Source of the DNA: a virus
Taxonomy: Duplodnaviria > Caudoviricetes
Virus record (IMG/VR): IMGVR_UViG_3300042889_000421
Span: 1 to 54,154 of that record
DNA: 54,154 bases
Reading direction: 5' to 3' (one strand)
The notes beneath the pieces are model-generated. The model saw only the letters and a list, made by a program, of their open reading frames with translations, did no database searches and was not told the origin of the DNA. Positions 216 through 30,231 of this stretch are shown here, one piece after another. How positions within the stretch are numbered: the first letter of the stretch is position 1; every line of letters begins with the position of its first letter. A program made the position numbers and the translations under genes.

Positions 216-989
216 ATGGCTCGCAAACCAAAAATAGTTGATACACACTTTGAAGATTTATCGAAATATAACCAAGCAGCTAATGATAAAATCATTCAAG
301 GTGTCCAATCAAATAGACTAAAAATGCGTATTGAAGACCTAAAAACATTCGCACCACTAACTGAGAATCAAGGACTGTTCTTTAATTCTTATAAAGTGGG
401 TGAATATTTTATGATGCTGTCTGGCAGTGCAGGAACAGGTAAATCGTTTATTGCACTTTACAAAAGTTTGGAAGAAGTAATGGACAAAGGTAATTCCTTT
501 AATCAAGTTTTGATTGTCCGTTCTGCTGTCCAAACAAGGGATGTTGGATTCCTCAAGGGTTCTCTTGAAGAAAAAACATCTTTGTACGAAGAACCTTATG
601 TTCAAATTTGTGCTACTCTGTTTGGTAAGAAAGATGCTTACCAACGCCTAAAAGAACAAGGTTATATTGAGTTTACAACAACAACTGCTATGAGGGGAAT
701 GAGTTTTGACAATTGCGTAGTTATACTAGACGAGTGCCAAAATTGTACGTTCCAGGAGTTGGACACTGTAATAACTAGAATAGGTCATCAATCAAAGATT
801 ATGTTTGTTGGTGATACTGGACAAAATGATTTACAAAAGAAATCTTCAGAAGTCTCTGGAATGCCAGACTTTATTAAAATTGCAACTTCAATGAATGAGT
901 TCTGCCGTATCCATTTTACCAGTGCTGATATTGTTAGGTCGAGTTTGGTCAAACAATATATTATAGCAAAAGAAACTTTAGGTTATTAA
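216..989 (+). CDS. phoH: PhoH-family ATPase
   Basis: Walker A GSAGTGKS, RDVGFLKG, MRGMSF, Walker B ILDECQN, VITRIG, GDxxQxD motifs. Confidence 0.95.
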   Translation: MARKPKIVDTHFEDLSKYNQAANDKIIQGVQSNRLKMRIEDLKTFAPLTENQGLFFNSYKVGEYFMMLSGSAGTGKSFIALYKSLEEVMDKGNSFNQVLIVRSAVQTRDVGFLKGSLEEKTSLYEEPYVQICATLFGKKDAYQRLKEQGYIEFTTTTAMRGMSFDNCVVILDECQNCTFQELDTVITRIGHQSKIMFVGDTGQNDLQKKSSEVSGMPDFIKIATSMNEFCRIHFTSADIVRSSLVKQYIIAKETLGY

Positions 990-996
990 TCTCAAC

Positions 997-1029
997 AAAC
1001 CCATCTTAATCGGTGGGTTTACTTTTTTT
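997..1029 (+). terminator. Intrinsic terminator after phoH
   Basis: AAACCCATC / GGTGGGTTT stem followed by a T-tract. Confidence 0.8.
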
Positions 1030-1046
1030 ACTTTCAAAAGTAAATC

Positions 1047-1075
1047 TTTACAATTCTATAAATCTATAGTACAAT
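1047..1075 (+). promoter_or_regulatory. Sigma70-like promoter
   Basis: TTTACA-N17-TACAAT upstream of ORF 1121. Confidence 0.55.
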
Positions 1076-1120
1076 ACATAATAGTGAATCAATACAATAA
1101 TAAGATAAAGGGGAGGTGTT

Positions 1121-1456
1121 ATGAGTTCAAGATTTATGTCAGCATACGAAAAGGTTTTAAATTATAGAGATGATTTAGGTTTAGCGATAGTTACAGATGT
1201 CAATTATGCTATTGATGATTTGATATTTTCACACAAATGGTTAAACCATCAGTTCACACATCTAATGAAGTTTGTAGGTAGACTTCAGGAACAAAATGTA
1301 TTAGAAATTATGGATGCAGGTAGTTTTGATATATTTGAATTGTTCAAATCAATAGATAAAGTCTTACTACACAGAGAAGCAATGTTAAGAGTTATCAAGA
1401 ACTTCAAACTTGAAGAAGAATATGAAAAGGAACTTAAAGAACTATTAGAAGAATAA
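1121..1456 (+). CDS. Hypothetical protein
   Basis: 111-aa ORF with strong GGAGGT ribosome-binding site. Confidence 0.75.
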   Translation: MSSRFMSAYEKVLNYRDDLGLAIVTDVNYAIDDLIFSHKWLNHQFTHLMKFVGRLQEQNVLEIMDAGSFDIFELFKSIDKVLLHREAMLRVIKNFKLEEEYEKELKELLEE

Positions 1457-1463
1457 AAAAGTA

Positions 1464-1491
1464 TTGACAAGGATGTCAAATCAAGTATAAT
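1464..1491 (+). promoter_or_regulatory. Early sigma70-type promoter with a palindrome over the -35
   Basis: TTGACA-N16-TATAAT; TTGACA-AGGA-TGTCAA inverted repeat; A-tract upstream. Confidence 0.85.
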
Positions 1492-1533
1492 ACTTACATC
1501 GGTTCAACTTCTGAACCATTTAGGAATTATATC

Positions 1534-1980
1534 ATGACTACAATATCAAACCCAATGATCCAAAAACTTTTGACCAAGAAAGGTCAAATTGCCACTATGA
1601 CTACTGAAAGACCTATGAAGGTTCGTAAGGGTCAATCATCAATAATCAAAACATCTACATTCCAAACTAGAATTGGTGTTGATTACAACAACTTGAAATC
1701 TGTTAAAGAGAAACGTGAAACTGGTGTTCTATCTGCCATACCTAAAGAACTTCCTTATGGTAAATGGTTGGTGTTTCCTTACATCATTGAAACAGAAACT
1801 GATTTTCAAGTTAGATGTTCAAAATTCTCCAGTAATTTCAAATCCAGAACTGTTTATAAAAGAGCTGGTGTAGAGATTTCAAAAGATGAAGCAGAGATTG
1901 CATGTTTAGCATCTGAGTTCAAAGAGAATACTTCAGAAGTGTTCAATATCAAAATCAGTTCAATATTGGATGTGAAATAG
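1534..1980 (+). CDS. Hypothetical early phage protein
   Basis: 148-aa ORF, AGGA RBS, directly behind a promoter. Confidence 0.8.
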   Translation: MTTISNPMIQKLLTKKGQIATMTTERPMKVRKGQSSIIKTSTFQTRIGVDYNNLKSVKEKRETGVLSAIPKELPYGKWLVFPYIIETETDFQVRCSKFSSNFKSRTVYKRAGVEISKDEAEIACLASEFKENTSEVFNIKISSILDVK

Positions 1981-1988
1981 GGGGGAGT

Positions 1989-2699
1989 ATGACTAAAGAA
2001 GAGAAACAGAAATATAATAAGGCATACCAAGAATCTAATGCTGTTAAGTTAAAAGAATATCGTGAAGCTAATAAGGACAACAAGAGGCTTCAGAATAAGG
2101 AATATCGTGAAGCTAATAAGGATAAAATAAAGGAATATCGTGAAGCTAATAGGGAATATCAAAAGGGATATCGTGAAGCTAATAAGGATTATCAAAAGGA
2201 ATATTATGAGGCTAATAAGGATAAGATATTAGCATATAAAAAGAAATATTGTGAAGCTAATAAGGTCAAAATAAAGGATTATAAAAAGGCATACCGAGAA
2301 TCTAATGCTGATAAGTTAACTTATCAGCAAAAAGAATATTGTAAAAACAGGAGAGCTACCGACTACTTATTCAAGATAAAGGGCAATATTCGTACATTGA
2401 TAGCAAATGGAATGCGTAATAAAGGGTATAAAAAAACATCAAGAACTGCAGAAATTTTGGGTTGTTCTTTTGAAGAGTTTAAAGTACACATAGAACAGCA
2501 ATTCCCAAGGGATATGACTTGGGATAATGCTGGACTATGGCATTATGATCATATTAAACCATTAGCTTCTGCATCTAATTTGGAAGAATTATTAGAGCTA
2601 AATCATTACACTAATTTTCAACCACTTTGGGGTGAGGACAACCTAGAAAAGTCTGATAATCCTAACTGGATAAAATGTCCGATAAAATATGCAAAATAA
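1989..2699 (+). CDS. HNH endonuclease with N-terminal charged 11-aa repeats (possible homing endonuclease)
   Basis: WHYDHIKPL...LNHYTNFQPLW..DNLEKSD motif; EYREANKD repeats. Confidence 0.8.
   Translation: MTKEEKQKYNKAYQESNAVKLKEYREANKDNKRLQNKEYREANKDKIKEYREANREYQKGYREANKDYQKEYYEANKDKILAYKKKYCEANKVKIKDYKKAYRESNADKLTYQQKEYCKNRRATDYLFKIKGNIRTLIANGMRNKGYKKTSRTAEILGCSFEEFKVHIEQQFPRDMTWDNAGLWHYDHIKPLASASNLEELLELNHYTNFQPLWGEDNLEKSDNPNWIKCPIKYAK
2054..2265 (+). repeat. Imperfect coding repeats (GAATATCGTGAAGCTAATAAGG core) in the HNH gene
   Basis: About six copies encoding [KE]Y[RYC]EAN[KR]. Confidence 0.75.
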
Positions 2700-4461: not shown

Positions 4462-4926
4462 ATGGCAGAAAAATTATTAAAACAACGGATAATTGAAAGA
4501 TCAATATCTAATAATTGGGAAGATGCAGTTAAAGAATGGGTAGTACATAAGATGTACATGGGTGTTGAAACTTGTACATGTGGTAAAAAAAATATTAATC
4601 GTGTTTGTATTATACGAAACTCTGGCACAAAACGGGCAGTTAAAGTAGGTAGTTCGTGTGTGCATAAGTTCATGTACATACCTACACAAACAGTATTTAA
4701 TAATATTATTAAATTACAATCAGATAAGTTGTTTTTAGTTAAAGAATGTACCTTACAGATTGCGCTTGATTCAAAGGCAATAACACAATGGGATTTTGAC
4801 TTCTACTTATCTGCCTATAAATTTAAGAGGAAATCACCAAAACAAGAAGCATTACTACTAAAGATTAATCATAAACTGGAAACTTTAGTCGGACTGTCAA
4901 AGGTTTCAATAGAGGAGGCAGCATGA
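4462..4926 (+). CDS. Hypothetical protein with a putative metal-binding CxCG...GSSC motif
   Basis: ETCTCGKKNI...VGSSCV; GAGGT RBS. Confidence 0.7.
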   Translation: MAEKLLKQRIIERSISNNWEDAVKEWVVHKMYMGVETCTCGKKNINRVCIIRNSGTKRAVKVGSSCVHKFMYIPTQTVFNNIIKLQSDKLFLVKECTLQIALDSKAITQWDFDFYLSAYKFKRKSPKQEALLLKINHKLETLVGLSKVSIEEAA

Positions 4927-5165
4927 ATCGGGAACCTATATCGGAAGTAACAATAGTAAAGCTAACCACAAGAGAACTATCAAACAATTATATTAGAGCA
5001 AACTTTACTGGTCGTAGTGTGTCTTCGTGTATCGCAAAAAAGGTATGTATTAGTTGTCATAAAGGATTTAATAAAAAAAAGGGTAGAATGCGAGAAGAAT
5101 TATCTAGTGTTATGTTGGAGGGCGGCATTCCTTGTTATGAGTGTACAAAATGTTTTAGTAAATAA
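4923..5165 (+). CDS. Small Cys-rich, putative zinc-finger protein
   Basis: CISC and CYECTKC motifs; ATGA overlap. Confidence 0.6.
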   Translation: MNREPISEVTIVKLTTRELSNNYIRANFTGRSVSSCIAKKVCISCHKGFNKKKGRMREELSSVMLEGGIPCYECTKCFSK

Positions 5166-5168
5166 GAA

Positions 5169-5196
5169 TTGACATCTCAAACCAGTTTTGTATAAT
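5169..5196 (+). promoter_or_regulatory. Early sigma70-type promoter
   Basis: TTGACA-N16-TATAAT. Confidence 0.85.
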
Positions 5197-5225
5197 AGCT
5201 ACACATTAACCCATTAGGATTTATC

Positions 5226-5432
5226 ATGTACAAACAAAACTGGTTTCCAACTCTTAACGCAGCTTTAGAATCAGAAGATTTGATTGGTTTCTGGGAGTTG
5301 GGTTCAAATGTTTCATATGGACAGAATGTTAGATTCACTACCGAATGTGGTAAACATATCTCTGTATACCGAGAAAATGATGGTAGATATGAAAGACCAA
5401 TTCACTATCAAACTAAACAGGTAAAAAAATGA
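5226..5432 (+). CDS. Hypothetical early protein
   Basis: 68 aa, TAGGA RBS, behind a promoter. Confidence 0.75.
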   Translation: MYKQNWFPTLNAALESEDLIGFWELGSNVSYGQNVRFTTECGKHISVYRENDGRYERPIHYQTKQVKK

Positions 5433-5581
5433 AAAGATATAAGTTTTACTACTTTGAGCTTGCTAATCGTAAGAAATTCCATATTGCAGAAATCGTTTAT
5501 ACAAATAAAGAAACTGCTACAAAGATGTTCTTTGATAAGTATCCCGAAACAGAATATCTTATGTTTGCGGTGGAGGGTTGA
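5429..5581 (+). CDS. Hypothetical 50-aa protein (not in the ORF track)
   Basis: ATGA overlap with previous stop; MKRYKFYYFELANRKKFHIAEIVYTNKETATKMFFDKYPETEYLMFAVEG. Confidence 0.6.
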   Translation: MKRYKFYYFELANRKKFHIAEIVYTNKETATKMFFDKYPETEYLMFAVEG

Positions 5582-5605
5582 TGTGTGAGGTGATATGTTA
5601 ATTAT

Positions 5606-5613
5606 GATAAATA
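5606..5613 (+). promoter_or_regulatory. T4-type late promoter variant
   Basis: GATAAATA (consensus TATAAATA) about 28 nt upstream of ORF 5641. Confidence 0.55.
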
Positions 5614-5640
5614 GTATGATACTATACAAAAGGATTAATC

Positions 5641-7674
5641 ATGAAATCATTCAAACAATTTTTACTAGATTCTCTAAATGACAAACAAAAAGAAAAGTTA
5701 GGTATATATTGGGATAATACCCCTAGAACAGCTGCCAAAGAATTATCTAAGCATGTCCTTCCTAATGATGGTGGGGGTAGTATTAATGTACCTCTTTCTG
5801 TAGATACTAAAGAAGATGTTAAACATCATTTAGAAAAGCATGGATTTGAACTTTCTAATTATTCGGAAGGTAAAGCAAAAGACAAACATGGAAGAGAAGT
5901 TTCTATTGGTTCTGTTTTAAAGTCCCCCAAAACTGCAGCACCAGATACCTTAGTTAAGGGTTTTGAGAATGATGACAGAAGTTCAAATATAACAAAAGAT
6001 ACACATCATATTTTATTCTCTAATATACCCGTACATATTGGGGAAGTTTCAACCAACAAAAAATGGAACTCTTGTGCTGGTTTAACACCCGCAGGAAGAT
6101 TCACTCCATTCGGTGGCGGTGCTGCTGCTAAACAAATTCCTGATGCAATTAAAGCTGGTTCTCATGTTGCATATCTAATGCCAAAAGACAAGCATGATGC
6201 TAATGATGCTGCTGCTAGAATTCTGCTACATCCCTATCATTCATATGGTAAAAATGGTGCTATTGAACATTCTGTTCTGATGCCAGAAAGAAAAGTATAT
6301 TCTGCTTCTGGTGGTAAGAATTCAGACTTTCATAATTCTCTAGAGAAGTTTGCACGAGAAAAATATCCAATGCAAGAAGGTAAGATATACAAAAAAGATC
6401 CTTCTGTTTATGATGATGATGGTCAAAGAATTAGATTCAATACCTCTCCAAATTCTGTAAAGAAAATCTTAACAGGTGGATGGAAAGAGGGTATGACACA
6501 TCTATCAAAAGAGGCGGCAATGCAAGCAGTTCAATTACCAGCTGCAAGTATAACTGCTGTATTAAATCATCCTAGAACACAAGAAAATTGGGAAGGGGTT
6601 GAAGAAGGTCATCAAGCAATTGCTAGTCATCAAAAATTAACAGATGCACATGTGGACAAACTGTTAGAATTAGGTAGAGGCACACATCTTGCAGGTAATA
6701 AAAAATTAACCAAAACTCAAGTTGGGAAAATTGCTAATTATAGACCTGAAAGATTTACGGGAGAATCTGATTCTGAAAAAGAAGTTTCTGATATGGCAAA
6801 TGATGCACAAGACAGAGAAACAATCAAAACACATGTGACATTAATTAGAACTCATGCTGATAAGATTAAACCAGAACACGTTAAAACGATGATTAGTCAT
6901 CCTGCTATAACTGCTTCTAATTTGGAAACGGTAGCTAGAAATACCAGTAACCCAGAAGTGCAAAAAGCAATCTTAGAGCACCCAAAAACTGATTCTGGTG
7001 CTCTTTGGAATATTGCTAGAGCTACTAAAAATCCAGAATTTCATAAAGCAATTTTGAATCATCCTAAAGTAGATGCTGATGCTATCGGAGAAGTTGCTAG
7101 AAATTCTACTGATCCTGAGAACCAAAAGGAAATTTTAACTAAAAAGGATGAAGATGGGCGGATTCGTTCAGCAGACAGGAGTGCTCTTAGGGCTATTGCT
7201 GAAAACACTACTGATTCTGAGATGCATAAAGCAGTTTTGAAACATCCTAATGCAGATGACTCTACACTTAGAGCTGTTGCTGAACATACTACTGATCCTG
7301 AGATTCATAAAGCAATTTTAAATCACCATCTTGATGTGGGTTCTAATGTTCTTCATACAATTGCAACACATAGTACTGATCCAGAAATCCATAAAGCTAT
7401 CGTGAAACTACCACAAACAATGAATTCTACTCTTGATACTGTTGCTAGATATTCCAATGATCCTGAAGTTCATAAAGCAATTGTGAATCACCCCATCGTA
7501 AGTAGTGCCGTTCTTGATACTGTTGCAAATCGTTCTAAAAATCCAGAAGTTCATAAAGCAATTATGAACCACCCTAAAGTTTCAGCAGATGTTCTTCATA
7601 CAATTTATAAAAGCACTGATAACCCAGAAATAGATAAGGCAGTACATGACCACCCCAAATGGAAATCATTATGA
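5641..7674 (+). CDS. Putative internal head protein: targeting peptide + WxSC domain + ~25-aa helical HPK repeats
   Basis: Starts MKSFKQFLL; KKWNSCA; about ten PE[IV]HKAI[LV]xHP repeats. Confidence 0.7.
   Translation: MKSFKQFLLDSLNDKQKEKLGIYWDNTPRTAAKELSKHVLPNDGGGSINVPLSVDTKEDVKHHLEKHGFELSNYSEGKAKDKHGREVSIGSVLKSPKTAAPDTLVKGFENDDRSSNITKDTHHILFSNIPVHIGEVSTNKKWNSCAGLTPAGRFTPFGGGAAAKQIPDAIKAGSHVAYLMPKDKHDANDAAARILLHPYHSYGKNGAIEHSVLMPERKVYSASGGKNSDFHNSLEKFAREKYPMQEGKIYKKDPSVYDDDGQRIRFNTSPNSVKKILTGGWKEGMTHLSKEAAMQAVQLPAASITAVLNHPRTQENWEGVEEGHQAIASHQKLTDAHVDKLLELGRGTHLAGNKKLTKTQVGKIANYRPERFTGESDSEKEVSDMANDAQDRETIKTHVTLIRTHADKIKPEHVKTMISHPAITASNLETVARNTSNPEVQKAILEHPKTDSGALWNIARATKNPEFHKAILNHPKVDADAIGEVARNSTDPENQKEILTKKDEDGRIRSADRSALRAIAENTTDSEMHKAVLKHPNADDSTLRAVAEHTTDPEIHKAILNHHLDVGSNVLHTIATHSTDPEIHKAIVKLPQTMNSTLDTVARYSNDPEVHKAIVNHPIVSSAVLDTVANRSKNPEVHKAIMNHPKVSADVLHTIYKSTDNPEIDKAVHDHPKWKSL
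6875..7665 (+). repeat. ~75-bp coding repeats (HPK repeat)
   Basis: Recurrent ATCC[AT]GAA[AG]TTCATAAAGCAATT-like units. Confidence 0.8.
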
Positions 7675-8387
7675 AAACATTCAAAGAATTTAACGCATTA
7701 ACAGAAGAGATATTAATAGAACAAATTTTATCTATTGATGAAGACCTATTAACAGAAGCAGTTGGTAATATCATTGATGCTAAAGACCATCATCTGTATC
7801 AAAAAAGAAGTGTTGAGGACTTAGGGTTACGTTCACCAGATGAAGTACAAAATGCTTTAGCAGGTGATGCTACTTCTGTAAAGATTATGAACAAAGGACA
7901 TATTCCCAAAAGTGGTGATTTGGTTGGAGCAAGATTGAATATTAATGTATTAAATAATACTGGTATACCAGTTTTAACTATGCATAAAGCAACTAATAAA
8001 TCTAACTACAAACGTGGTCAAGGATTCTATAAAGGCGAAGCACAATCCTATCAACAAGTTGCTACTCTTAAAGATGCACAATTTAATGTACATCAAGCAG
8101 GAAGAGAAGCTATTGCATCTGGAAAGATGAACAAGCATCCAATGGCATCAGTTGATGGAAATTTTGTACCAACCGATAAACCAAATTTTGATGGTGTTGA
8201 AGTTAGATTTAATCCTAAAGCACATCATCTATTTGTTGATGCTAATAATAATGCTATTAAATCAGCAGAAGATGTAACTTTATATGGACATCGTGCATAT
8301 TTAAGAGGTAAGATAGAATATCACACACCAGAAACGGCTCCAAAGAAAGTTGGGGGTGCTCCTTCTCAAACTAAATTTTTAGGTTAA
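7671..8387 (+). CDS. Putative internal head protein
   Basis: True start MKTFKEF at 7671 (ATGA overlap). Confidence 0.7.
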   Translation: MKTFKEFNALTEEILIEQILSIDEDLLTEAVGNIIDAKDHHLYQKRSVEDLGLRSPDEVQNALAGDATSVKIMNKGHIPKSGDLVGARLNINVLNNTGIPVLTMHKATNKSNYKRGQGFYKGEAQSYQQVATLKDAQFNVHQAGREAIASGKMNKHPMASVDGNFVPTDKPNFDGVEVRFNPKAHHLFVDANNNAIKSAEDVTLYGHRAYLRGKIEYHTPETAPKKVGGAPSQTKFLG

Positions 8388-8388
8388 C

Positions 8389-8676
8389 ATGAAATCATTT
8401 AAAGAACTATTAGAAGAGATTGGTACCGGAAAGTATATGCATTGTAACATATCATTACTAACTAATAAAACTTGGCATAAAAATCAAGATAGTGGACATG
8501 AGTGGTCAACAGAAACTCCACAAACTAGTAAATATGGCTCTACAACATATCAAGTAACTGGTGGTAAATTAGGTCAACGTATTTTTAAAACTATTGATAA
8601 TGCAAAGAAAGCAATTGAATTTGATCATGAAGTTCAATTTGGTAAATTTGCTAATCTAAAACCAAGTAAAGATTGA
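8389..8676 (+). CDS. Putative small internal head protein
   Basis: Starts MKSFKELLEE. Confidence 0.7.
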   Translation: MKSFKELLEEIGTGKYMHCNISLLTNKTWHKNQDSGHEWSTETPQTSKYGSTTYQVTGGKLGQRIFKTIDNAKKAIEFDHEVQFGKFANLKPSKD

Positions 8677-8677
8677 T

Positions 8678-10786
8678 ATGAAATCATTTAAAGAATATAT
8701 TGCTCTAGAAGAAGCAAAGATAGATGATTATAAAGCACAAGAATCTTCTATATCTACTGAACATGATCCTGACGCAACTATTAAAGAACCTTCTGATATA
8801 GTAGATCATTTTCATGCCCATAATCCCACTGGTGACATTAATCACACTAAATGGGTAGTTGGACAGTATAAGAAAGGTTTAATCAAACAGGAAGATGCTC
8901 CTGCCATGAAAGATCTTCTAACAAACTTCAACAAGTTTAAGGATAAACTCCTAAAGAAGAAGATTGAGCAATATAAGACTCACGCAGAACTTCAACATGC
9001 TATTGCACCACATATAGGAACCTCTACTTCCGAGAAACAATCTGCACAGATTGAAAAGGATATGGATGAAGGTACCACACTTGTGCATTCAACACCTAAT
9101 ATGACATTAAGACATATTCATACTAAAGAAGGATCTATTGCTGCTTCTAAATATCCTGATGGTAAAAGACCATCTTGGTGTACTGCAAGAGAAGATTCAC
9201 AGAATATGTTTGACCATTATAATAGTAGAACTGGTGGAAAATTCTTTGTAGCACATTTGCCTAATGAGAAACCACCATTTCATAAAATTGGTATTGCAGT
9301 TGGTGCAAATGAATTTCAAGATGCAGACAACACAAAATTAGAAGATCGTAGATTAAAGACTTTAGTAGATAGAAATCCAGAAATGAAAGAAATACCAGAA
9401 CTTCAAGGTGCTTCTATTCATACTACTAAACCGGAAAATGTTGAGAAACATATTCATGATTTGATGGACAATGATCCAGAAGATACCAGAGATGAAATAT
9501 TTAACAATTCAGAAAAATATACAAAGCACTTAAAACTATTTCATCTTAAAAAAGTACACGACACAATTAATCAATATGATGATGAAATGGAAAAGGCAGA
9601 AGATGAAGATGATTCTGTTAAGAATTCTAAGTTCAAAAGTGTATTAAAAGAACTAGCTCGTGGTACTGGTAATCCAGAAACATTAGAACATCTCTCCAAG
9701 CATCCTGATGATGGTGTAAAAGCTGCAGTTGCTAGAAACTATTCAACACCAAAGATTGTTAGAAAGCAATTCCTAGATCATCCTAATCCAATTGTTAGGG
9801 GTTCAGTAGAACTTAGAGATTTTCCTGAAAGAATAAGAGCAGAAACAGTTGCTAAAGAAACTAATCCTAGTGTAATAGCTAAACATGTTACTGGTGATGA
9901 TTCTCTTGATGTTCAGAAAGCAGCATTAGCAAATACTAATACTGGTTCAGATGCTCTTGGTAATATTGGAGCAATTTCTCATCATCCAGAAATCCACAAA
10001 GCAATTTTAGAACACCCAAAAACTGATGCTCCTGCATTAGAACTTTTGGTTAGAAATAATGTAGCTTTACATAATCATGCAAAGGAAATTTTAAATCACC
10101 CCAAAGCATCTTCAGATACTTTATCATATCTTGGTAGGAATGTGATGAATAAAGACATTATGCATGATATTATTAAACACCCCAATACTGATGCAGAAAC
10201 CTTATCATCAATGTCTAGAAATACCGGACAGCCAGATATTCATCAAGCAATTCTTAAACACCCTAAAGTTGATAGAAGAGCAATTGATCAAATTGCAGAG
10301 TCTACACATGATGAAGGTGTGATTAAATCTATTGTAAAACATCCTGAAACGCAAGGAAATGCTTTGCACCAAATTTCTATGAAAAAGGATGATCCAGAGA
10401 TTCAAAAAGCAATTATAAAACACCCAAATGTGGATAAGTATGCTCTTGGTTCTATTGCTAGAAGAAGAGCCGATATAGAAGTTCAAAAGGCAGTAATTGA
10501 ACACCCAAAATCAACTCTTGGTGTTATCAATGATATTGTTGATAAGAATCCTTCACATGATATTCTGCACCATATACTAAATAATCATCATGGTAGATTG
10601 ACACATGCTACTTTGAATGGTATAAAACGTGGATTGGGAAGTAAAGTCCCAGAGATATATGATAATTCTCATGCTACCCAAGAACATATAGATGCTGTTA
10701 GAAATGAAGGAAAACCTGTAGTCACACCAAAGAAAGCACCAGCAAAAAAACTAGATTTATATTCAGACGATTGGTTCAAAGAATGA
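8678..10786 (+). CDS. Putative internal head protein: targeting peptide + WCT domain + HPK repeats
   Basis: Starts MKSFKEYIALEE; PSWCTARE..NMFDHY; PEIHKAILEHPK repeats. Confidence 0.7.
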   Translation: MKSFKEYIALEEAKIDDYKAQESSISTEHDPDATIKEPSDIVDHFHAHNPTGDINHTKWVVGQYKKGLIKQEDAPAMKDLLTNFNKFKDKLLKKKIEQYKTHAELQHAIAPHIGTSTSEKQSAQIEKDMDEGTTLVHSTPNMTLRHIHTKEGSIAASKYPDGKRPSWCTAREDSQNMFDHYNSRTGGKFFVAHLPNEKPPFHKIGIAVGANEFQDADNTKLEDRRLKTLVDRNPEMKEIPELQGASIHTTKPENVEKHIHDLMDNDPEDTRDEIFNNSEKYTKHLKLFHLKKVHDTINQYDDEMEKAEDEDDSVKNSKFKSVLKELARGTGNPETLEHLSKHPDDGVKAAVARNYSTPKIVRKQFLDHPNPIVRGSVELRDFPERIRAETVAKETNPSVIAKHVTGDDSLDVQKAALANTNTGSDALGNIGAISHHPEIHKAILEHPKTDAPALELLVRNNVALHNHAKEILNHPKASSDTLSYLGRNVMNKDIMHDIIKHPNTDAETLSSMSRNTGQPDIHQAILKHPKVDRRAIDQIAESTHDEGVIKSIVKHPETQGNALHQISMKKDDPEIQKAIIKHPNVDKYALGSIARRRADIEVQKAVIEHPKSTLGVINDIVDKNPSHDILHHILNNHHGRLTHATLNGIKRGLGSKVPEIYDNSHATQEHIDAVRNEGKPVVTPKKAPAKKLDLYSDDWFKE

Positions 10787-11331
10787 AAACTTTTAAAGAA
10801 TTCATATCTGAGAGTAGTAAACAACTTATTCATAGAATAGACAACACTCAGATAGATAATTTCAACCATAAACTGAATACATATCACCATACTGCTGATT
10901 GGACTGAATCTGGACAAGCACACCCTAAAGATATTCCAGAAGAAGGCTTTGTTAAGTCTAGGGGTTTATTTGGTGGAGATCTCCATGCTATTGCACCATA
11001 TACTACACCGAGAGGTACTAGATTCATACAACATTATGATGATAAGGGTAAGTCAAATATTATGTTTCATGATAAAGATAAACATCTTATAATTGCTCAC
11101 CAACCCATACTATCATCTTTTCCAAAGAGTAGATTCAAATATCTTGAAAACTCTGGAGAACATTTCAGTATTAATCCAGGTATACCTATACAGCAAATTG
11201 TTATTAAGAATCCTATCAATTTCATGAAACGGCAAGGACATAAGGTAATCTTTGTTCCTAATCTAGATCATGCTAAGAAAAAATTAGAACAATCTGGAAT
11301 AAACCACAATGTAGAAGGAGAGTTTGAATGA
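10783..11331 (+). CDS. Putative internal head protein
   Basis: True start MKTFKEFISE at 10783 (ATGA overlap). Confidence 0.7.
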   Translation: MKTFKEFISESSKQLIHRIDNTQIDNFNHKLNTYHHTADWTESGQAHPKDIPEEGFVKSRGLFGGDLHAIAPYTTPRGTRFIQHYDDKGKSNIMFHDKDKHLIIAHQPILSSFPKSRFKYLENSGEHFSINPGIPIQQIVIKNPINFMKRQGHKVIFVPNLDHAKKKLEQSGINHNVEGEFE

Positions 11332-11459
11332 AAACTTTTAAAGATATCACAATGGGGTTGAATGTTCGTTCAGATAAAAATGCTGGATCTAGAACAATTA
11401 AAGCTGAAGTAGTACCAGAAAAACATATTACAACAATAGACACCAAATGGGAAGGGTAA
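11328..11459 (+). CDS. 43-aa ORF with targeting-like start (not in the ORF track); mini-protein or remnant
   Basis: MKTFKDITMGLNVRSDKNAGSRTIKAEVVPEKHITTIDTKWEG; GGAG RBS; overlaps both neighbours (ATGA, TAATG). Confidence 0.6.
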   Translation: MKTFKDITMGLNVRSDKNAGSRTIKAEVVPEKHITTIDTKWEG

Positions 11460-13210
11460 TGATATCATTTAAACAATTTATAAACGAACACTTATCTTCA
11501 TCTGAGCAAGAAGTTGTAGATGAAATGAAATTAGATTCATCTGCAGGTAAAGAGAACTTCAAAGGAATTATCCCAGAAGGACATTCACACACAGAAATTC
11601 CTATTAGAAACCCATTAGATTTAAAAATCAATGAACATTTAAAGGCTAATCCTGTTACAGATAGAGCAGGTAATCATCTTGGTTATTACAAGAGAGATGA
11701 AGAAGATCATAAAACAGTAGTTCACCCTGATGGAAGAAAGGTTAAGTTATCGGGAGTATTAAAAAGCAATCCTGTATTAGCTAAAGAATTTGCAGAAGTT
11801 GGTTCAAGAGCATCCGCTGAACGTACTAATACTAGATGGACTGCTCCTGCTATTGATACAACTCAAAAAAAGATTTACATATCTAATCACCCTCATGCAT
11901 GTTTTGGTAAATCTCAAGGAAAGCCTTGGAGAAGTTGTGCGGATTGGGGTTCTGGATATGCAGCAAATCATCTTGAATCTGATGTTGAACAAGGTGGTGG
12001 TGCAGCATTCTTAACTCATAAAGATGAACCAACACCAGATAATCCCAGAATGGCATTAGGAAGAGTTGCTATACACCCTTATCATGCTATAGATGAAGCG
12101 GGAAAAATCATTAGAGATGAAAATGGAGGTTCTGCACATACAATTTTAAGAGCATCTTCTAAAAGATATGGTGAAGATGATGCACATGAGAGTTTTCATA
12201 AGAATGTTGCCCAACATCTAGAAGAAAAACACCCAATGATATACTCAAGGTATAAACTTAATTCGCAGGTTTATCAAGGTGATGATGAGGATAACAAGAT
12301 TATTGAAAGACCTCTATCAGAAGAAGAAAAGAAACCTCATATTGAAAATCTTGACTTTGGTGTTAAGATGGGTTATTCATCTCCTGATGATGTTGTTCAT
12401 GCTATTAAACATAATTATTTAACTCAATCACATATTGATACTATAACAAAAACAAAAACTCAGAGTCCATCCCATCTTGAACTAGCAATAGCACATAAGA
12501 ATGGAAAGGTTAAATTATCAAATGATAATATTAATAATATTACAAAACATGGTAATGCTTTAGCATCAGATGAATTATCATTAGCACATAAGACAAAAAG
12601 ACTTCCCGATGAAGCACTTAATAATATTGCTAAGAATCCAACTGCGATTGCTGCACATGAACATTTAACTCAGGCATTTTTGGATAATAAACATCTTCCC
12701 GATTCTGCTATTAATGCTATTGCCAGTAATCCAAAATCACATTGGGCTCATTATAATCTAGCATCTGCTCATGCAAATGGTACTAAAATACCGGATGAAG
12801 CGATTCATTCAATAGTTCAAAACCCAATATCTGCTAATGCTCGTAAAGAATTAATTTCTGGTCATTTGCATGGTAAAAGTATTCCTGATGAAGCTATTGA
12901 TTATATGGCTAAAAATGGGTTTGAGGCAGAACATCATGGTATAGTCCAAGCACATTTAGCTGGTAAGAAAGTATCCGATGAAGCTATTGATCATATAGTA
13001 AAAAGTCCTTTCTCAACAATAGCTCATTCATTGTTAGCTGGTGCTCATGCTGATGGCAGAATAAAATTATCAGATGACCATTTAAATACTATAACAAGTA
13101 ACGACCATTCAAGAGCTGCCCACGATAAGTTAGAATTAGCACACAAAGTTGGTAAAACTCTTCCTGATCAGGCTGTATTCAATCTTAATAAGCGTGGATA
13201 TATGCTGTGA
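11459..13210 (+). CDS. Putative internal head protein: targeting peptide + WxSC domain + ~31-aa PDEA repeats
   Basis: True start MISFKQFINE at 11459; KPWRSCA; [IL]PDEA[IL]xxIxxNP...AH repeats. Confidence 0.7.
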   Translation: MISFKQFINEHLSSSEQEVVDEMKLDSSAGKENFKGIIPEGHSHTEIPIRNPLDLKINEHLKANPVTDRAGNHLGYYKRDEEDHKTVVHPDGRKVKLSGVLKSNPVLAKEFAEVGSRASAERTNTRWTAPAIDTTQKKIYISNHPHACFGKSQGKPWRSCADWGSGYAANHLESDVEQGGGAAFLTHKDEPTPDNPRMALGRVAIHPYHAIDEAGKIIRDENGGSAHTILRASSKRYGEDDAHESFHKNVAQHLEEKHPMIYSRYKLNSQVYQGDDEDNKIIERPLSEEEKKPHIENLDFGVKMGYSSPDDVVHAIKHNYLTQSHIDTITKTKTQSPSHLELAIAHKNGKVKLSNDNINNITKHGNALASDELSLAHKTKRLPDEALNNIAKNPTAIAAHEHLTQAFLDNKHLPDSAINAIASNPKSHWAHYNLASAHANGTKIPDEAIHSIVQNPISANARKELISGHLHGKSIPDEAIDYMAKNGFEAEHHGIVQAHLAGKKVSDEAIDHIVKSPFSTIAHSLLAGAHADGRIKLSDDHLNTITSNDHSRAAHDKLELAHKVGKTLPDQAVFNLNKRGYML

Positions 13211-13605
13211 AGACTTTCAAACAATATTTAAATGAGAATATCATTGTTGGACAACATAAGTTCATTGTAGATCCTGGGTATGATAATCATGAGGCATCTT
13301 TACATCTGTTTAATGTTAATAAAGTAGAGAAATCATTCTCACAGGATAAAGATAAGTATATTGGAAAAGGTGGTACTGGTGCTGGTATAATTAAAGATAG
13401 GTATCCAAGAGTACAAGACTTTATAAAACAAAATAAAGTTATACATTCTTCTTCTGTTGGTGTTGATGATGAAGGGAAGTTAACTTTTAATAATGGTAGA
13501 CATAGATATTCAGCATTTAGAGATATGGGTGTTAAACATATACCAATGTCTTTACATTCTGATGAAGATAGAACAAATGCAAAAAAGTTTGGTTATATTA
13601 ATTGA
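13207..13605 (+). CDS. Putative internal head protein with a ParB/sulfiredoxin-like motif
   Basis: GTG start, MKTFKQYLNE; FNNGRHRYSAFRDMG. Confidence 0.65.
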   Translation: MKTFKQYLNENIIVGQHKFIVDPGYDNHEASLHLFNVNKVEKSFSQDKDKYIGKGGTGAGIIKDRYPRVQDFIKQNKVIHSSSVGVDDEGKLTFNNGRHRYSAFRDMGVKHIPMSLHSDEDRTNAKKFGYIN

Positions 13606-13629
13606 CATTCTCACTTGATGGTTTATAAT
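13602..13629 (+). promoter_or_regulatory. Sigma70-type promoter
   Basis: TTGACA-N16-TATAAT. Confidence 0.85.
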
Positions 13630-13785
13630 GAATCATCAAGTTTTTCTACAACTAAAGGAGTCGCTTATAAGATAAACTGAAGTACCATTCCGTTATAAAA
13701 CTTCAATAAGGCAATGAGTCACCGAAGAATAGGAAAACAATATTAGGATTCTTCTGATATTGTAACTAAAGAATAGGAGAAATAC

Positions 13786-14241
13786 ATGCGATCAATTACA
13801 ATGATCTTATGTCTGTGCTTTATGTCTGCATCTGTTGATGCTCAGACTTTATCACATAAAAAGAATATTATTTCAAAATCAAAGACTGTTATCATTAATG
13901 GTCATATTTCAAAAAGGGATATATTATGCGCTGCTGAGACTTTGTACTCAGAAGCAAGAGGTGAATCATTGACTGGACAACTTGCAGTGGGCGCAACAAT
14001 TGTCAATCGGTCTAAATTATTAAATAAAACCGCATGTAAAGTAGTAAAGCAACAATATACACAAAAACGTATACCTGTTGATGATAAAAAAGAGTTCCAC
14101 AAACTAGCAACAAATATTCTATATGGGAATGTTAAAAACCCAATAGGAAAATTAGATTCTTTTGATTCCTTTAAACATAAACGTCACCCAAGACATAGTG
14201 TTCATATAGGAAATCACTGGTTTTATAAATCTATGTCTTAA
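13786..14241 (+). CDS. SleB-like cell wall hydrolase (Hydrolase_2) with signal peptide
   Basis: CAAETLYSEARGES..GQLAVG.TIVNR and C-terminal IGNHWFY; hydrophobic N-terminus ending VDA. Confidence 0.88.
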   Translation: MRSITMILCLCFMSASVDAQTLSHKKNIISKSKTVIINGHISKRDILCAAETLYSEARGESLTGQLAVGATIVNRSKLLNKTACKVVKQQYTQKRIPVDDKKEFHKLATNILYGNVKNPIGKLDSFDSFKHKRHPRHSVHIGNHWFYKSMS

Positions 14242-23698: not shown

Positions 23699-24865
23699 AT
23701 GGCAGAACCCTTTTACAACACAGGTGCGTTAAATCCTAATGATCTTCAGATAGATGGGTTACCCTATAAAAGGTTGCTTCCTGAAGAACAATCAAAGTTA
23801 TTACTTGAAGAAGCACGAATTGATGCTATTCGTGGAGTAACACCTAATGTCTCTGAATATTCTGTTGCATCGTATACTTATCCAGAAAATCTTTTAGGAT
23901 CTGAAGAATATGGCGGAAATTATGCTATGTTCTTTATTAATGTTCAATCAGAATCTAAACTTAAGAATGGTGGTGGTGGGTATGGGTTAAATGATTTAGT
24001 AGATAAGGCTACAACTGGATTAAATAATGTTGGGGGTGCTTATTCAAAAGGGGGTCTTGTTGCTTATACAGAACTAAATCTTGCTAAGGATTTAATAGTT
24101 GCAGGTGGTGCAGCAGCGGCAGCAGGAGCTAGTGCATTCGGATCATCAAAACTAGCAGGAATAGTTGCTGCTGGTGCAATTCTCGGACCGTCACTAATAA
24201 AAGATGCTGCAATGGGTGTTATAGCATATGCTGGAGAATTTTCTAAACCAACTAAAAGATTAAAGACCGCAATTGCTCTTCATATGCCAATTGCTTTATC
24301 TGTTAGATATTCCATGAATTATGAAGAATCGGAAACTCCAATTGGATTGAAAACAACAAATGCATTAGGCGCAGATACAAATGGCACCTTAAAAAGTGCA
24401 GCAGTTGCAGGTGGATTACAACAACTAGGGGATGTTGGGAATATACTTTCTAAAATAACCAAACTGGCGGTTAATCCTACTAAAGAACAAATCTTTAAGG
24501 ATGTTGATTTTAGAACCTTCACTTTTACATATTTATTTGCCCCTAAGAGTGCTATTGAAGCTGGTAATATATTAGCATTGATACAACAATTTAAATTTCA
24601 TATGCATCCAGAATTTAAAGATCAAGATAAGTTTCTTTATATATACCCATCAGAATTTGATATTGTTTATTATACTGGTGGTAGAGAGAATGATAAAATC
24701 CATAGACACACTTCTTGTGTTTTGATAGATCTGACTTTAGATTATGCTCCTCAAGGAACTTATTCAACATTTGCTAATGGTATGCCAACACAAATTTCAA
24801 TGAATATGGTATTCAAAGAACTTGCTAAACTAGATAAAGAGAAAATAAGCATAGGTAAATTCTAA
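23699..24865 (+). CDS. gp48: Baseplate tail-tube cap, gp48-like
   Basis: IALHMP, NP.KEQIFKDVDFRTFTF...FAPKS, YPSEFDI, NGMPTQI. Confidence 0.85.
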   Translation: MAEPFYNTGALNPNDLQIDGLPYKRLLPEEQSKLLLEEARIDAIRGVTPNVSEYSVASYTYPENLLGSEEYGGNYAMFFINVQSESKLKNGGGGYGLNDLVDKATTGLNNVGGAYSKGGLVAYTELNLAKDLIVAGGAAAAAGASAFGSSKLAGIVAAGAILGPSLIKDAAMGVIAYAGEFSKPTKRLKTAIALHMPIALSVRYSMNYEESETPIGLKTTNALGADTNGTLKSAAVAGGLQQLGDVGNILSKITKLAVNPTKEQIFKDVDFRTFTFTYLFAPKSAIEAGNILALIQQFKFHMHPEFKDQDKFLYIYPSEFDIVYYTGGRENDKIHRHTSCVLIDLTLDYAPQGTYSTFANGMPTQISMNMVFKELAKLDKEKISIGKF

Positions 24866-27324: not shown

Positions 27325-30231
27325 ATGGCTGATCCAATAGAAAGCATACCAATCCCAAGTACACCACCTACTAGTTCTGGTGCAACACAAGGAGCAGTCG
27401 CAGGTATAGCAGCTATTATCGCTGCCTGTGATGCTGCTGGTTTAAAATCTAAATATGCTAAATGTGCCTTGCTTGGTGTTGCTGGTGTTGAAAGCAAATG
27501 GTTATATTCGGCATTAGAAGATCATACTTATTCCACCAAGGGTATACGTGGAACTTGGCCAAGGATTAAACAACCAGACGCAGAACATTGGAATAATAAA
27601 CCAAATCAATATTCTAGGGTAGAATTCTTTGGTTTTATCTATGGCACAAGTAAAAACAAACCTGCATCTATCGGAAATTATCATGGTAGGGGGTTTATAC
27701 AAATTACTTTCCCAGAAGCATATAAGGCTATTGGGGATAAATTAGGTATTGATTTAGTTGGGAATCCTGATTTAGTGGCTTCTTCTGCTGATATTGGCGG
27801 TAAGGTTATGGTGGAATTTGTCAAGTGGAAAATGAAAGACTGGGAAACACGACAATGGAGTTCTGGATTTTTTGATTATTTACTGAGTAAAGTAGGCGGT
27901 GATGCGAATGGCTGGCCAGTAAAAAGAAAATATTATGAATACTTCTTAGGTGGTAAATCGGATTCTCCTCCAACAAATAAAGATCCATCCTCAACCTCAG
28001 TAAATAAAACTGCTAGAGAAATAGATTTATCTAATCCAAATAAACGAGAAGCATATACTGAAGATAGATCTGCAAATTTCAATACAGAAGGATTTACTGA
28101 TCCGGAAGGGAAATACCCACTTAGAGATTTTATGAATGAACCAGATACCAATAGACTTGCTCGTGGTATTATAGATGGAACTCATGTAAAATTTAAAGAT
28201 ATAACTAGAAAACTTGATATCCCTATTGCTAATATGGCAGGTGGTACGGGTGAACAGGGCACTTGGGATCAACCAGAATGTGCGTATAATACGGTATATC
28301 CATTTAACAAGGTATTTGAGTCTGAGGCTGGACATGTTTTAGAATTTGATGATAGTCCAGATGGTGAACGGGTAAATATCTACCACAGTAAAGGGACATT
28401 TATTGAAATAGATCCTAATGGTTCTCAAATTAATTATATCGTTGGTGATGGATTTTATATCACAGAAAATAATGGAAATGTTTTTATTAATGGAACATGT
28501 AATATAACAGTTGCTAGTGAATTGAATATTTTATGTCAAGGAAATGCTAATATTGAAGTGAACGGAACAGCAGATGTTGTTATTCATGATGACCTTAATA
28601 TTGGTGTTGCAAAAGATCTTAATATTGCTGTGGGTGGGGATTATAATGTTCTTGTAGAAGGAAATTATAATGTTGAAGTTGCTAAAACTTCTAATACTAG
28701 ATCAATTGGTACAATGTCTATTGAATCTACTGATGCATTAAAATTAAAAACTGCTAAGACTATGAGCATGGAAGGGGGTGATACTGCTTCTACTGCTGAA
28801 ACATTAATGAAGATGTCTAGTAGTTTCAAATTGGAAACACCTGCTGATTTTCAAATTAAAGCAAAAACTTTCACGCTGGATATAGAAGATTCAACTGAGA
28901 TAAAAACTAAAACCTTTTTGCTTCAAACAGAAGAAACTACTAAGATTAAAACAGATATGTTTCAATTAGATGGAACAACATCTACAGATATTCTTACAGG
29001 AATGTTTAATACTACTACAACTATGGGTATTCTTCAACTAAATTCTACTGGAACTGCTATTATAAACGCTAATGCCACATTATCTGCAACAGCAGGTTTT
29101 ATAGATTTGAATGGAACTGCTATACCACCAACCCCAATAACTGCAATATCCGATAAAGTAGAACCATTAGTATTATTAGGTGCCCCAAAAGTTCCAGTAG
29201 ATTTTGCTGGAGATCCTGTTAAAGATAGAAAAGAAGAGCAAGTATTAGTTGATACTGTATTAAATCCTGCTGGTGAATATAACCCAAACACATTATCAAA
29301 ATCTATTATTGAATATGCGTTAACTGGTATACCATTTGTTGGTGGTATTGCTCCAGATATATATGATGTTAAATATACTGGTGCACCAATTGAGAATAAG
29401 ACATCATTAACTTCATCTGGAGCAAGTGTTAGTCCTTATTCTAAATTACAAGTACCACCAAGTGTAGGTTCAAATAAACCACCACAAAATAATTTAAAAA
29501 CTCCAGAAAGACATTCTGAATCAACATCAAAATATGAAACTGAAGCGGATTGGGCAAGTTCGGGTGGTCAGAAATTAGAACATAAAATATCATCAACAAG
29601 TGATTATGAACACAATCATGTTGATCCAACTGCTGAAGATTCTACTACTCCTTCTGGAGGAAAATCTGGGGGGACTGATATTTCTCAAGATAAACTTAAT
29701 GATATAAATGGAAGAGGTGATTTCCCTTTAAGTTATCCATTATCTAAACATTTTACTTTAGGTATGTTATGTAAAGATGGTAATCTACAGGAACAAACTA
29801 TAGCAGGAACTCTATACACAAAAGCCAATATAGTTGCTAATTTATCTGAGTTGTGCGAAAATTTATTAGAAAAAATATATGATGAACTTGGTCCTTGTCA
29901 AGGTGGAGGAAATGGTGCTACTTGGAGAATTTCTGATGGATTTAGACCTAATAATAGAGCAAATTCTAAAGGTTCTAAAACTTCACACCATCTAAAAGGT
30001 AGGGCTGCAGATATTCAATTAGTAACACCAAATAAAATATCTGATCTGTATGATCTATGTGTAAAGTTAGAAAAGATATTACCATATCAAGAATGCTTTA
30101 TGGAATATGCTAATGGTGGAAAATCTAGATGGATTCATTTAGCATATGATAAAAATAATTCATCTAAAGAAGTTACTACTCAGGTAGAGTGGAAAAAGAA
30201 ATCTAATAAAATAGAAAAACTATTTTCATAA
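27325..30231 (+). CDS. gp5: Central spike gp5 body: GH19-like lysozyme + beta-helix + peptidase M15-like domain
   Basis: YHGRGFIQIT; GFTDPEGKYP, YPFNKVFESEAGH..EFDD; V.G repeats; SHHLKGRAADI...WIHL. Confidence 0.85.
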   Translation: MADPIESIPIPSTPPTSSGATQGAVAGIAAIIAACDAAGLKSKYAKCALLGVAGVESKWLYSALEDHTYSTKGIRGTWPRIKQPDAEHWNNKPNQYSRVEFFGFIYGTSKNKPASIGNYHGRGFIQITFPEAYKAIGDKLGIDLVGNPDLVASSADIGGKVMVEFVKWKMKDWETRQWSSGFFDYLLSKVGGDANGWPVKRKYYEYFLGGKSDSPPTNKDPSSTSVNKTAREIDLSNPNKREAYTEDRSANFNTEGFTDPEGKYPLRDFMNEPDTNRLARGIIDGTHVKFKDITRKLDIPIANMAGGTGEQGTWDQPECAYNTVYPFNKVFESEAGHVLEFDDSPDGERVNIYHSKGTFIEIDPNGSQINYIVGDGFYITENNGNVFINGTCNITVASELNILCQGNANIEVNGTADVVIHDDLNIGVAKDLNIAVGGDYNVLVEGNYNVEVAKTSNTRSIGTMSIESTDALKLKTAKTMSMEGGDTASTAETLMKMSSSFKLETPADFQIKAKTFTLDIEDSTEIKTKTFLLQTEETTKIKTDMFQLDGTTSTDILTGMFNTTTTMGILQLNSTGTAIINANATLSATAGFIDLNGTAIPPTPITAISDKVEPLVLLGAPKVPVDFAGDPVKDRKEEQVLVDTVLNPAGEYNPNTLSKSIIEYALTGIPFVGGIAPDIYDVKYTGAPIENKTSLTSSGASVSPYSKLQVPPSVGSNKPPQNNLKTPERHSESTSKYETEADWASSGGQKLEHKISSTSDYEHNHVDPTAEDSTTPSGGKSGGTDISQDKLNDINGRGDFPLSYPLSKHFTLGMLCKDGNLQEQTIAGTLYTKANIVANLSELCENLLEKIYDELGPCQGGGNGATWRISDGFRPNNRANSKGSKTSHHLKGRAADIQLVTPNKISDLYDLCVKLEKILPYQECFMEYANGGKSRWIHLAYDKNNSSKEVTTQVEWKKKSNKIEKLFS

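Follow-up and report, generated by a model that had tools for sequence, protein, structure and literature searches.

What do eight consecutive viral genes encode if their three largest members combine N-terminal domains and repeat arrays in different ways, and all eight products open with nearly the same short peptide? The question is raised by positions 5641-13605 of IMG/VR record IMGVR_UViG_3300042889_000421, a single viral contig of 54,154 bp that was analysed at its full length (hereafter the window). A preliminary description of the sequence dealt with three large open reading frames (ORFs), here called genes A, B and C, and did not report that all eight products begin with M-K/I-S/T-F-K, a leader common to the three large ORFs and their five neighbours. 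Our reading, to which we give a probability of about 0.7, is that the eight genes at 5641-13605 make up a translationally coupled operon for internal head proteins of the T4 type.

The shared leader and its T4 counterpart

The eight consecutive genes at 5641-13605 lie on the plus strand with junctions of -4, +1, +1, -4, -4, -1 and -4 nt. Since they abut or overlap by -4 to +1 nt, they constitute one translationally coupled operon, in which the 43-aa ORF at 11328 closes the sole apparent gap. The genes and their parts are as follows.

5641..7674, plus strand: gene A, 677 aa; leader MKSFKQF, Ser-Cys N-domain, 27-aa LRV-type array
5992..6438, plus strand: predicted GNAT-like core of gene A, residues 118-266; invariant Cys145 at 6073-6075
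6898..7671, plus strand: repeats of gene A, about nine 27-aa LRV-type repeats, residues 420-677
7671..8387, plus strand: leader gene 2, 238 aa; MKTFKEF; ATGA overlap with gene A; Phage_L5_gp82 domain, mycobacteriophage L5 gp82-like (Pfam PF25735, 7.7e-11), phrog_586
8389..8676, plus strand: leader gene 3, 95 aa; MKSFKELLEE; no Pfam or PHROG family
8678..10786, plus strand: gene B, 702 aa; leader MKSFKEY, 'WCT' N-domain, 27-aa LRV-type array; Cys168 at 9179-9181
9932..10582, plus strand: repeats of gene B, about eight 27-aa LRV-type repeats, residues 419-635
10783..11331, plus strand: leader gene 5, 182 aa; MKTFKEFISE; same position kept in the related locus L084
11328..11459, plus strand: leader gene 6, 43-aa ORF; MKTFKDI; revealed by a DNA repeat (family D14)
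11459..13210, plus strand: gene C, 583 aa; leader MISFKQFINE, Ser-Cys N-domain (Cys160 at 11936-11938), 31-aa array
12515..13207, plus strand: repeats of gene C, about seven 31-aa 'PDEA' repeats, residues 353-583
13207..13605, plus strand: leader gene 8, 132 aa; GTG start, (M)KTFKQYLNE; weak match to PFIN, the plasmid fertility-inhibition family (0.044), around an NGRHR motif

A six-frame scan of the 54 kb with the pattern M-[KI]-[ST]-[FY]-[KQ]-[EQ]-[FYL] returned seven gene starts (5641, 7671, 8389, 8678, 10783, 11459 and 13207) and one other match, which is not a start. In T4 (NC_000866) the internal protein gene ipI starts with MKTFKEF, and ipII and ipIII start with MKTYQEFIAE. The products of 7671 and 10783 start with MKTFKEF and are identical to T4 IPI over these 7 residues, while those of 8389, 10783, 11459 and 13207 have Leu or Ile at position 8 and Glu at position 10, like IPII and IPIII. 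Other aliphatic-x-Glu sites are L-E-E12 in the product of 8678 and L-T-E12 and L-I-E17 in that of 7671. Six of the eight products have a predicted gp21-type cleavage site, taken as aliphatic-x-Glu at 10-19 residues from the N-terminus. The starts identical to IPI and the I/L-x-E at residue 10 together point to a T4-type internal-protein locus. The 10-19-residue propeptides of T4 are described as capsid targeting sequences, of which the first 10 residues of IPIII are enough for packaging; residues 4 and 7 are reported as important for targeting, 8 and 10 as important for processing (PMC9026906). The same source proposes the targeting tag as a possible means by which T4-like phages bring diverse proteins into the head, and the T-even internal proteins are characterized in PMC3012670 as highly diverse defence proteins with only the targeting sequence in common.

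Codons of the leader vary synonymously between the genes, so that it is the peptide that is under selection. The DNA of the leader recurs as a dispersed repeat (families D10, D14 and D18), and a degenerate pattern of it was found four times in the forward direction, never in reverse and never with a reversed-pattern control. Among homologues, 45 of 148 A-family representatives begin with a T4-like leader, as do 12 of 38 B-family proteins and all five close relatives of C; of the 1989 internal Met positions in 186 homologues, not one has it. In 78 related viral loci the gene strand has 34 occurrences of the pattern and the opposite strand one, and 20 of 75 related loci have further genes with the homologue's own leader (27 on the same strand, 2 on the other); these locus counts are soft, because several loci are near-duplicates and most genes are on the plus strand.

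Homologues of both large N-domain families are present in purified virions. The best phage-database match of A is ORF132 of Ralstonia phage RsoM2USA (RsoM2USA_132; A-domain profile 3.6e-58), which starts with MKTFKQF, keeps GWTSCM and, with 76.64 kDa, was reported among 10 virion bands by sodium dodecyl sulfate-polyacrylamide gel electrophoresis and liquid chromatography-tandem mass spectrometry (PMC8504454). The best phage match of B is EST35_0205 of Pseudomonas phage PA5oct (B-domain profile 8.2e-42), annotated in GenBank as 'structural protein, ESI-MS/MS'; 93 virion-linked products are given for this phage (PMC7318152). ORF132 and EST35_0205 are true members of the A-type and B-type families, respectively. 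They come from jumbo phages of other hosts, differ in their C-terminal parts and are described only as 'hypothetical' or 'structural'. Both phages encode a gp21-type protease: PF03420 was found in PA5oct, RsoM2USA, Atu_ph07 and T4 (four of five named records), as well as in five of five large viral contigs with an A-family gene.

The likeness to T4 extends from the leader, with its I-x-E at residue 10 in IPII and IPIII, to the surroundings of the genes. The T4 internal protein genes are clustered beside the lysis enzyme gene, with gene e 3' of ipII and ipIII, and a hydrolase gene likewise lies 3' of the leader cluster in the window.

13786-14241, 3' of the cluster: cell-wall hydrolase, 151 aa; SleB-type, Pfam Hydrolase_2 at 6.3e-07, phrog_938 endolysin; hydrophobic N-terminus

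As here, the mature parts of the T4 proteins are mutually unrelated, and the leader alone is what PMC3012670 gives as common to them. The T4 internal proteins are single-domain proteins of 95-193 aa, whereas three products of the window are two-module proteins of 583-702 aa, and unlike in T4 eight leader genes are joined in one coupled operon. With both N-domains as queries, tblastn against 50,697 phage records, among them T4, gave no T4 hit and thus no likeness to T4 beyond the leader. T4 Alt, with about 682 aa, is similar in size to the large window products. This ADP-ribosyltransferase is described as a large head-loaded enzyme that is trimmed by gp21 after Glu (ITE-6, LTE-619), ejected and active in modifying host proteins (PMC5694885, PMC9026906); gp21 cleavage after Glu and a mature mass of 68.2 kDa are both given in PMC5694885. 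No relation of the window proteins to Alt or ADP-ribosyltransferases was detected in sequence or in fold, and a hit of the B domain to PARP2 (E 1.4, TM 0.11) is noise.

The preliminary description had not recognised this as a described system. For the internal-protein system this does not hold, as it is known and the leader is that of T4-type capsid-targeted internal proteins. What is new is the cargo and the way it is built from modules, and the two N-domain families are unnamed. A limited full-text literature search returned no paper linking the capsid targeting sequence with HEAT/LRV repeats or with an acetyltransferase.

Two N-domain families and their repeat arrays

A paralogous N-domain in A and C, as first proposed from short motifs, is borne out by BLASTP, which aligns the first ~290 residues over 296 columns (E=2e-15, 27% identity). 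The motif pairs ILFSNIP/IYISNHP, KKWNSCA/KPWRSCA, ARILLHPYH/GRVAIHPYH and EKYPM/EKHPM that had been quoted all lie within this alignment. The N-domain of B was correctly set apart: nothing in the product of B matches that of C better than E=4.2, and the match between A and B is confined to the C-terminal arrays.

To collect the A-type family, 1.84 billion representatives (clusters at 50% identity) were searched exhaustively by phmmer with A(1-300) as query. Of the 779 matches at E<=1e-3, 292 passed E<=1e-10 and 25 passed E<=1e-30. Residues and architectures were counted in the best 150 of the 779 matches, which are 61 to 1980 aa long; the 61-aa fragment was left out of the residue counts. The domain begins within the first 60 residues in 145 of the 150, with a median C-terminal extension of 348 aa. 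Ser144, Cys145 and Arg193 are found in 149/149, followed by Trp142 and Tyr250 (147 each), Tyr220 (146) and His175 (142). Conservation of the cysteine, which the preliminary description had assumed, thus extends to all 149 A-type sequences, and it was also found in 29 of 29 aligned B-type sequences. Cys145 is the only Cys in the whole product of gene A.

In the structural model, the order of secondary-structure elements in the A-type core resembles that of the GNAT fold of acyl-CoA N-acyltransferases (e.g. HAT1), and the Ser-Cys pair is located in the loop between the first two helices. Fold comparison of this core gave GNAT folds for 50 of the 50 matches listed in one search and for about 43 of 50 in another, as read from titles; the remaining matches listed (about 7 of 50) include malonyl-CoA decarboxylase, FemA, MprF and phage Mu Mom. 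Foldseek searches of the A and B models against PDB returned nothing at E<=0.001, and BFVD gave 17 matches at E<=0.001, all uncharacterised or unnamed. The A-type N-domain is covered by no Pfam, PHROG or PDB sequence family, a profile search of PDB sequences gave matches in the repeat parts and none in the N-domains, and no acetyltransferase was among the Pfam matches of 43 members (E<=10) or 71 further members (E<=0.001). The acetyl-CoA pyrophosphate-binding loop has the pattern Q/R-x-x-G-x-G/A. The family consensus from strand 4 to helix 3 is PExxxYGxxxxxF, in which this pattern is not evident by eye. The A/C N-domain is best described from the models as a putative Ser-Cys/Arg/His/Tyr centre on a weakly GNAT-like alpha/beta core. 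As a separate observation, two to four paralogous genes for the Ser-Cys domain stand in tandem or close together in five IMG/VR loci (L045, L046, L056, L036 and L050), and the paralogues of a locus have one lineage-specific leader in common; in L045, for example, four genes start with MRLKSFQEY.

The N-domain of B, searched with B(1-300), has 38 homologues; some are standalone proteins of about 250-300 aa, and the others, with HEAT/LRV repeats attached, are 360-512 aa long. Invariant positions among the 29 aligned are D30, H44, Y64, Q71-E72-D73, W167-C168-T169, F178, Y181 and the Glu of the L-x-E after the leader; C168 is again the only Cys of the protein. The model of B has a pLDDT of 86.9, and its N-domain gave no convincing fold match. 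A single-protein query of viral contigs returned no close relatives of B. Homology between A-type and B-type N-domains was rejected at the level of sequence, as hhalign of the trimmed profiles gave probabilities of 0.6% and 3.3%, and the match of the full A and B alignments at 6.8e-19 comes solely from the HEAT/LRV tails. On our reading, without superposition, the two models have their secondary-structure elements in the same order around the Trp-Cys loop. A protein-language-model search placed a partly PcfJ-annotated cluster nearest to both N-domains (0.88 and 0.90, a lead-only level), and 38% and 33% of members of neighbouring clusters carry PcfJ. A PcfJ-like fold had been guessed at earlier; the PcfJ model (PF14284) has no match in 43 and 29 family members (E<=10), in the window (E<=10) or in five phage records (E<=1), and the guess fails by HMM, the language-model lead being its only support.

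The C-terminal arrays are distributed differently. Genes A and B have the same type of array, as had been noted before (BLASTP E=1e-34, 37% identity, 241 columns), and likeness persists in DNA, where 6935-6993 and 9969-10027 are 73% identical over 59 nt (family D2) and the 30-mer quoted earlier at 6964 and 9998 has 2 differing positions. The 'HPK' repeat had been given a period of 25 aa; its actual period is 27 aa (81 nt), by autocorrelation at lag 27 in both proteins and by Tandem Repeats Finder at period 81. The 31-aa period of gene C was recovered by autocorrelation and by a 93-nt spacing in DNA (family D5). The 27-aa repeat belongs to Pfam LRV_2 (PF25591; 47.8 bits in A and 34.9 in B, cut-off 27), whereas no Pfam family was found for the 31-aa array, so the A and B arrays are similar to 1LRV/HEAT repeats and that of C is not assigned to a family. 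The A-family profile matches 1lrv_A at 6.5e-05, and the B-family profile matches designed HEAT-like alphaRep proteins. In the C-terminal extensions of the A family, Pfam (E<=0.001) detected only helical-repeat or low-complexity families (HEAT in 22 of 71, HEAT_2 in 14, LRV in 10). The earlier suggestion of a variable helical solenoid is correct, given these LRV/HEAT-type assignments from Pfam and profile searches. The LRV and HEAT proteins known to us are cellular and not virion cargo.

Comparison of N-domain and array combinations showed that architectures are not fixed among relatives, in line with the mix-and-match arrangement first described. The nearest N-domain relatives of A (64-66% identity) have other lengths and are without the 27-aa period, and the array of A best resembles arrays of the B family (P0038 at 3.5e-38, B at 1e-34) and of one A-family member, P0043 (1e-29). 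In the close relative L084, the order of B, a 10783-like gene and C is retained. Another relative, L085, encodes a protein whose N-domain is 54% identical to that of C (6e-118, residues 1-308) and whose C-terminus is an A/B-type array (43% identity to A, 1e-20) without a match to the array of C. The five homologues of C that were found all have its architecture, and none of them has the 31-aa array on another N-domain. Related N-domains on different solenoids and unrelated N-domains on the same solenoid indicate that the modules have recombined in evolution, and on these sequence comparisons we regard the N- and C-terminal modules as shuffled. A recent exchange of repeats between A and B was rejected; since the arrays are only ~37% identical, any such exchange is old. 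In L085 the C-like gene (252-2113, minus strand) adjoins a gene for a C5 cytosine methyltransferase-like protein, with a second methyltransferase-like gene on the opposite strand, both judged from translations; this neighbourhood is unlike that of the window.

Packaging, function and the alternatives

If the operon encodes internal head proteins, the capsid targeting sequence (M-K/I-S/T-F-K-x-aromatic/aliphatic) would dock each product on the scaffolding core during prohead assembly, and a gp21-type prohead protease would cut most products after the Glu of the I/L-x-E motif near residues 10-17. The mature proteins would remain in the head with the DNA and then be ejected with it into the host, the three large ones as a compact N-terminal domain with one invariant Cys followed by a C-terminal alpha-solenoid. 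We infer packaging, cleavage and ejection in the source phage by analogy, from T4 and from the virion data on homologues.

Several observations weigh against this reading. The product of gene A has Asp at position 10 and so is without I/L-x-E10, and the 43-aa ORF at 11328 has no nearby I/L-x-E; according to PMC9026906, Asp at position 10 stops processing in T4 but not targeting. Detection of the homologues in virions does not place them in the head or show their ejection. Phage JA29, which has two A-family genes, gave no match to PF03420. The contig is ~34% complete (CheckV) and without a head module, hence has no gp21 or scaffold gene to show. The locus lacks the exact T4 late-promoter octamer TATAAATA, and early transcription is possible from a perfect sigma-70 promoter at 5169-5196, 470 nt upstream of the operon. 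The sequences at the two borders of the operon are as follows.

5606..5613, plus strand: possible T4-type late promoter GATAAATA, 27 nt before the start of gene A
13602..13641, plus strand: downstream boundary at the operon end; perfect TTGACA-16-TATAAT promoter overlapping a 13-bp stem-loop, then a T run

The heptamer ATAAATA of GATAAATA has no other plus-strand copy between 5.6 and 14.4 kb, and is also found 25-58 nt before the structural-gene starts at 23699, 33898, 40477, 48290 and 51720. Its position makes GATAAATA a candidate T4-type late promoter of the operon, which is suggestive only. In the window as a whole, TATAAATA is not enriched (9 found vs 11.5 expected).

What the packaged proteins do is a separate matter. 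An enzymatic role of the cysteine domains and target selection by the solenoids are plausible, and we infer that the N-domain is catalytic, possibly in acyl transfer or a thiol-dependent reaction on a host component. A wider proposal is tentative, though possible: the WCT family and the Ser-Cys family, the latter with at least 779 clusters at 50% identity, may be two undescribed classes of capsid-loaded, DNA-co-injected enzymes of T4-like and jumbo phages, fused to fast-evolving, exchangeable alpha-solenoids that aim them at different host proteins, the Ser-Cys class performing thiol-dependent acyl transfer on a GNAT-like scaffold in the first seconds of infection. The main rival, which we think unlikely, accepts packaging and takes the proteins for non-enzymes. 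The N-domain would then be an extended core-docking or ejection module with its invariant residues kept for folding or docking, and the solenoids would bind and organise DNA in the head or protect its ends. Such a module would fit the position of the A-type domain right after the leader in those 145 of the best 150 members, with a variable C-terminus behind it, and there is a precedent in ejection proteins of giant phages, for which long N-terminal propeptides of ~125 residues are described (PMC5694885). No cofactor motif or catalytic family was found, and RsoM2USA ORF132 gives a Coomassie-stained band, an abundance that suits a structural role. However, that band was assigned at the full predicted 76.64 kDa (PMC8504454), which argues that the domain is not removed as a propeptide, and the B-type domain also occurs standalone at ~255 aa. 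The invariant polar set (Ser-Cys and Arg, with a near-invariant His and three Tyr) is moreover typical of an active site, and A and B each have exactly one Cys in ~700 residues, which is the invariant one.

That the products are not packaged at all, and act as cytoplasmic early takeover or anti-defence proteins, is very improbable in our view. Their shared N-terminus would come from a start region of shared descent, translational coupling or a recombination linker. The sigma-70 promoter at 5169-5196, with no terminator between it and 5641, the absence of exact TATAAATA from the locus, and the nature of the leader DNA as a dispersed repeat (D10, D14 and D18) able to mediate recombination would all agree with this. 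Yet eight otherwise unrelated proteins retain the leader peptide despite synonymous codon changes, the leader is that of T4 IPI with I/L-x-E10 in four genes, and homologues of both large families have been found in purified virions. Least credible of all is that the likeness to the T4 leader is due to chance or composition in an AT-rich genome and the mix-and-match pattern to ordinary paralogy of repeat proteins. The leader is indeed short and the genome has 33% G+C, but this explanation is already contradicted by the controls: the six-frame scan yielded these starts and a single non-start match, the DNA pattern appeared four times forward and neither in reverse nor in the reversed-pattern control, and internal Met positions scored 0/1989. 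The N-domains of A and B are also unrelated by profile comparison, yet their arrays match at 1e-34.

The host encounters injected internal proteins before any other phage product, and in T4 IPI is reported to disarm a restriction enzyme (PMC3012670) and Alt to reprogram RNA polymerase (PMC9026906). As an internal-protein operon, the locus would show that distant T4-like phages use the T4 loading tag for much larger, modular cargo, including two widespread unnamed families that in some virions are abundant enough for gel bands. The leader would provide a simple sequence rule to find packaged proteins in uncultured T4-like phages, and the invariant Cys and swappable solenoids would be experimental handles on early host takeover or counter-defence. 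If two classes of injected enzymes do share exchangeable solenoids, they would be a phage counterpart of bacterial polymorphic effectors.

Source phage and neighbouring sequences

The window has a G+C content of ~33% and no tRNA genes in its 54,154 bp. It encodes a gp32-type single-strand DNA-binding protein (phrog_224, 6e-69) and T4-type baseplate and tail proteins, among them a gp5 OB domain, gp6-like, gp8, gp48/54-like tail cap and gp36-like proteins, together with a tail-tube gene. Among cultured phages, the gp6 homologue has its nearest relatives in the T4-like myophages Melnitz of Methylophilales (38% identity) and Mosig and HTVC008M of Pelagibacter (36-37%), and the gp32 homologue is 34-37% identical to gp32 of cyanomyoviruses. 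These T4-type genes and their relatives identify the source phage, as far as sequence can tell, as a distant, uncultured T4-like myovirus. A megablast search of 5641-13210 against phage records gave zero matches.

The downstream boundary at 13602-13641 resembles the promoter-plus-stem-loop cassettes of T4-type variable regions, which are said to drive module shuffling there (PMC2839356). Upstream, two short unlisted reading frames (starts near 5227 and 5430) lie between the 5169-5196 promoter and the operon (5169-5640). Two small Cys-rich ORFs of 154 and 80 aa with CxC/CxxC patterns are located just upstream of the operon, at 4462-5165; the first of them has no Pfam family match. Farther along, 27325-30231 encodes a gp5-like baseplate hub protein of 968 aa with a class I chitinase-like domain (Glyco_hydro_19), a gp5 OB domain and a weak Peptidase_M15 match, and this hub protein thus holds two different wall-degrading modules.

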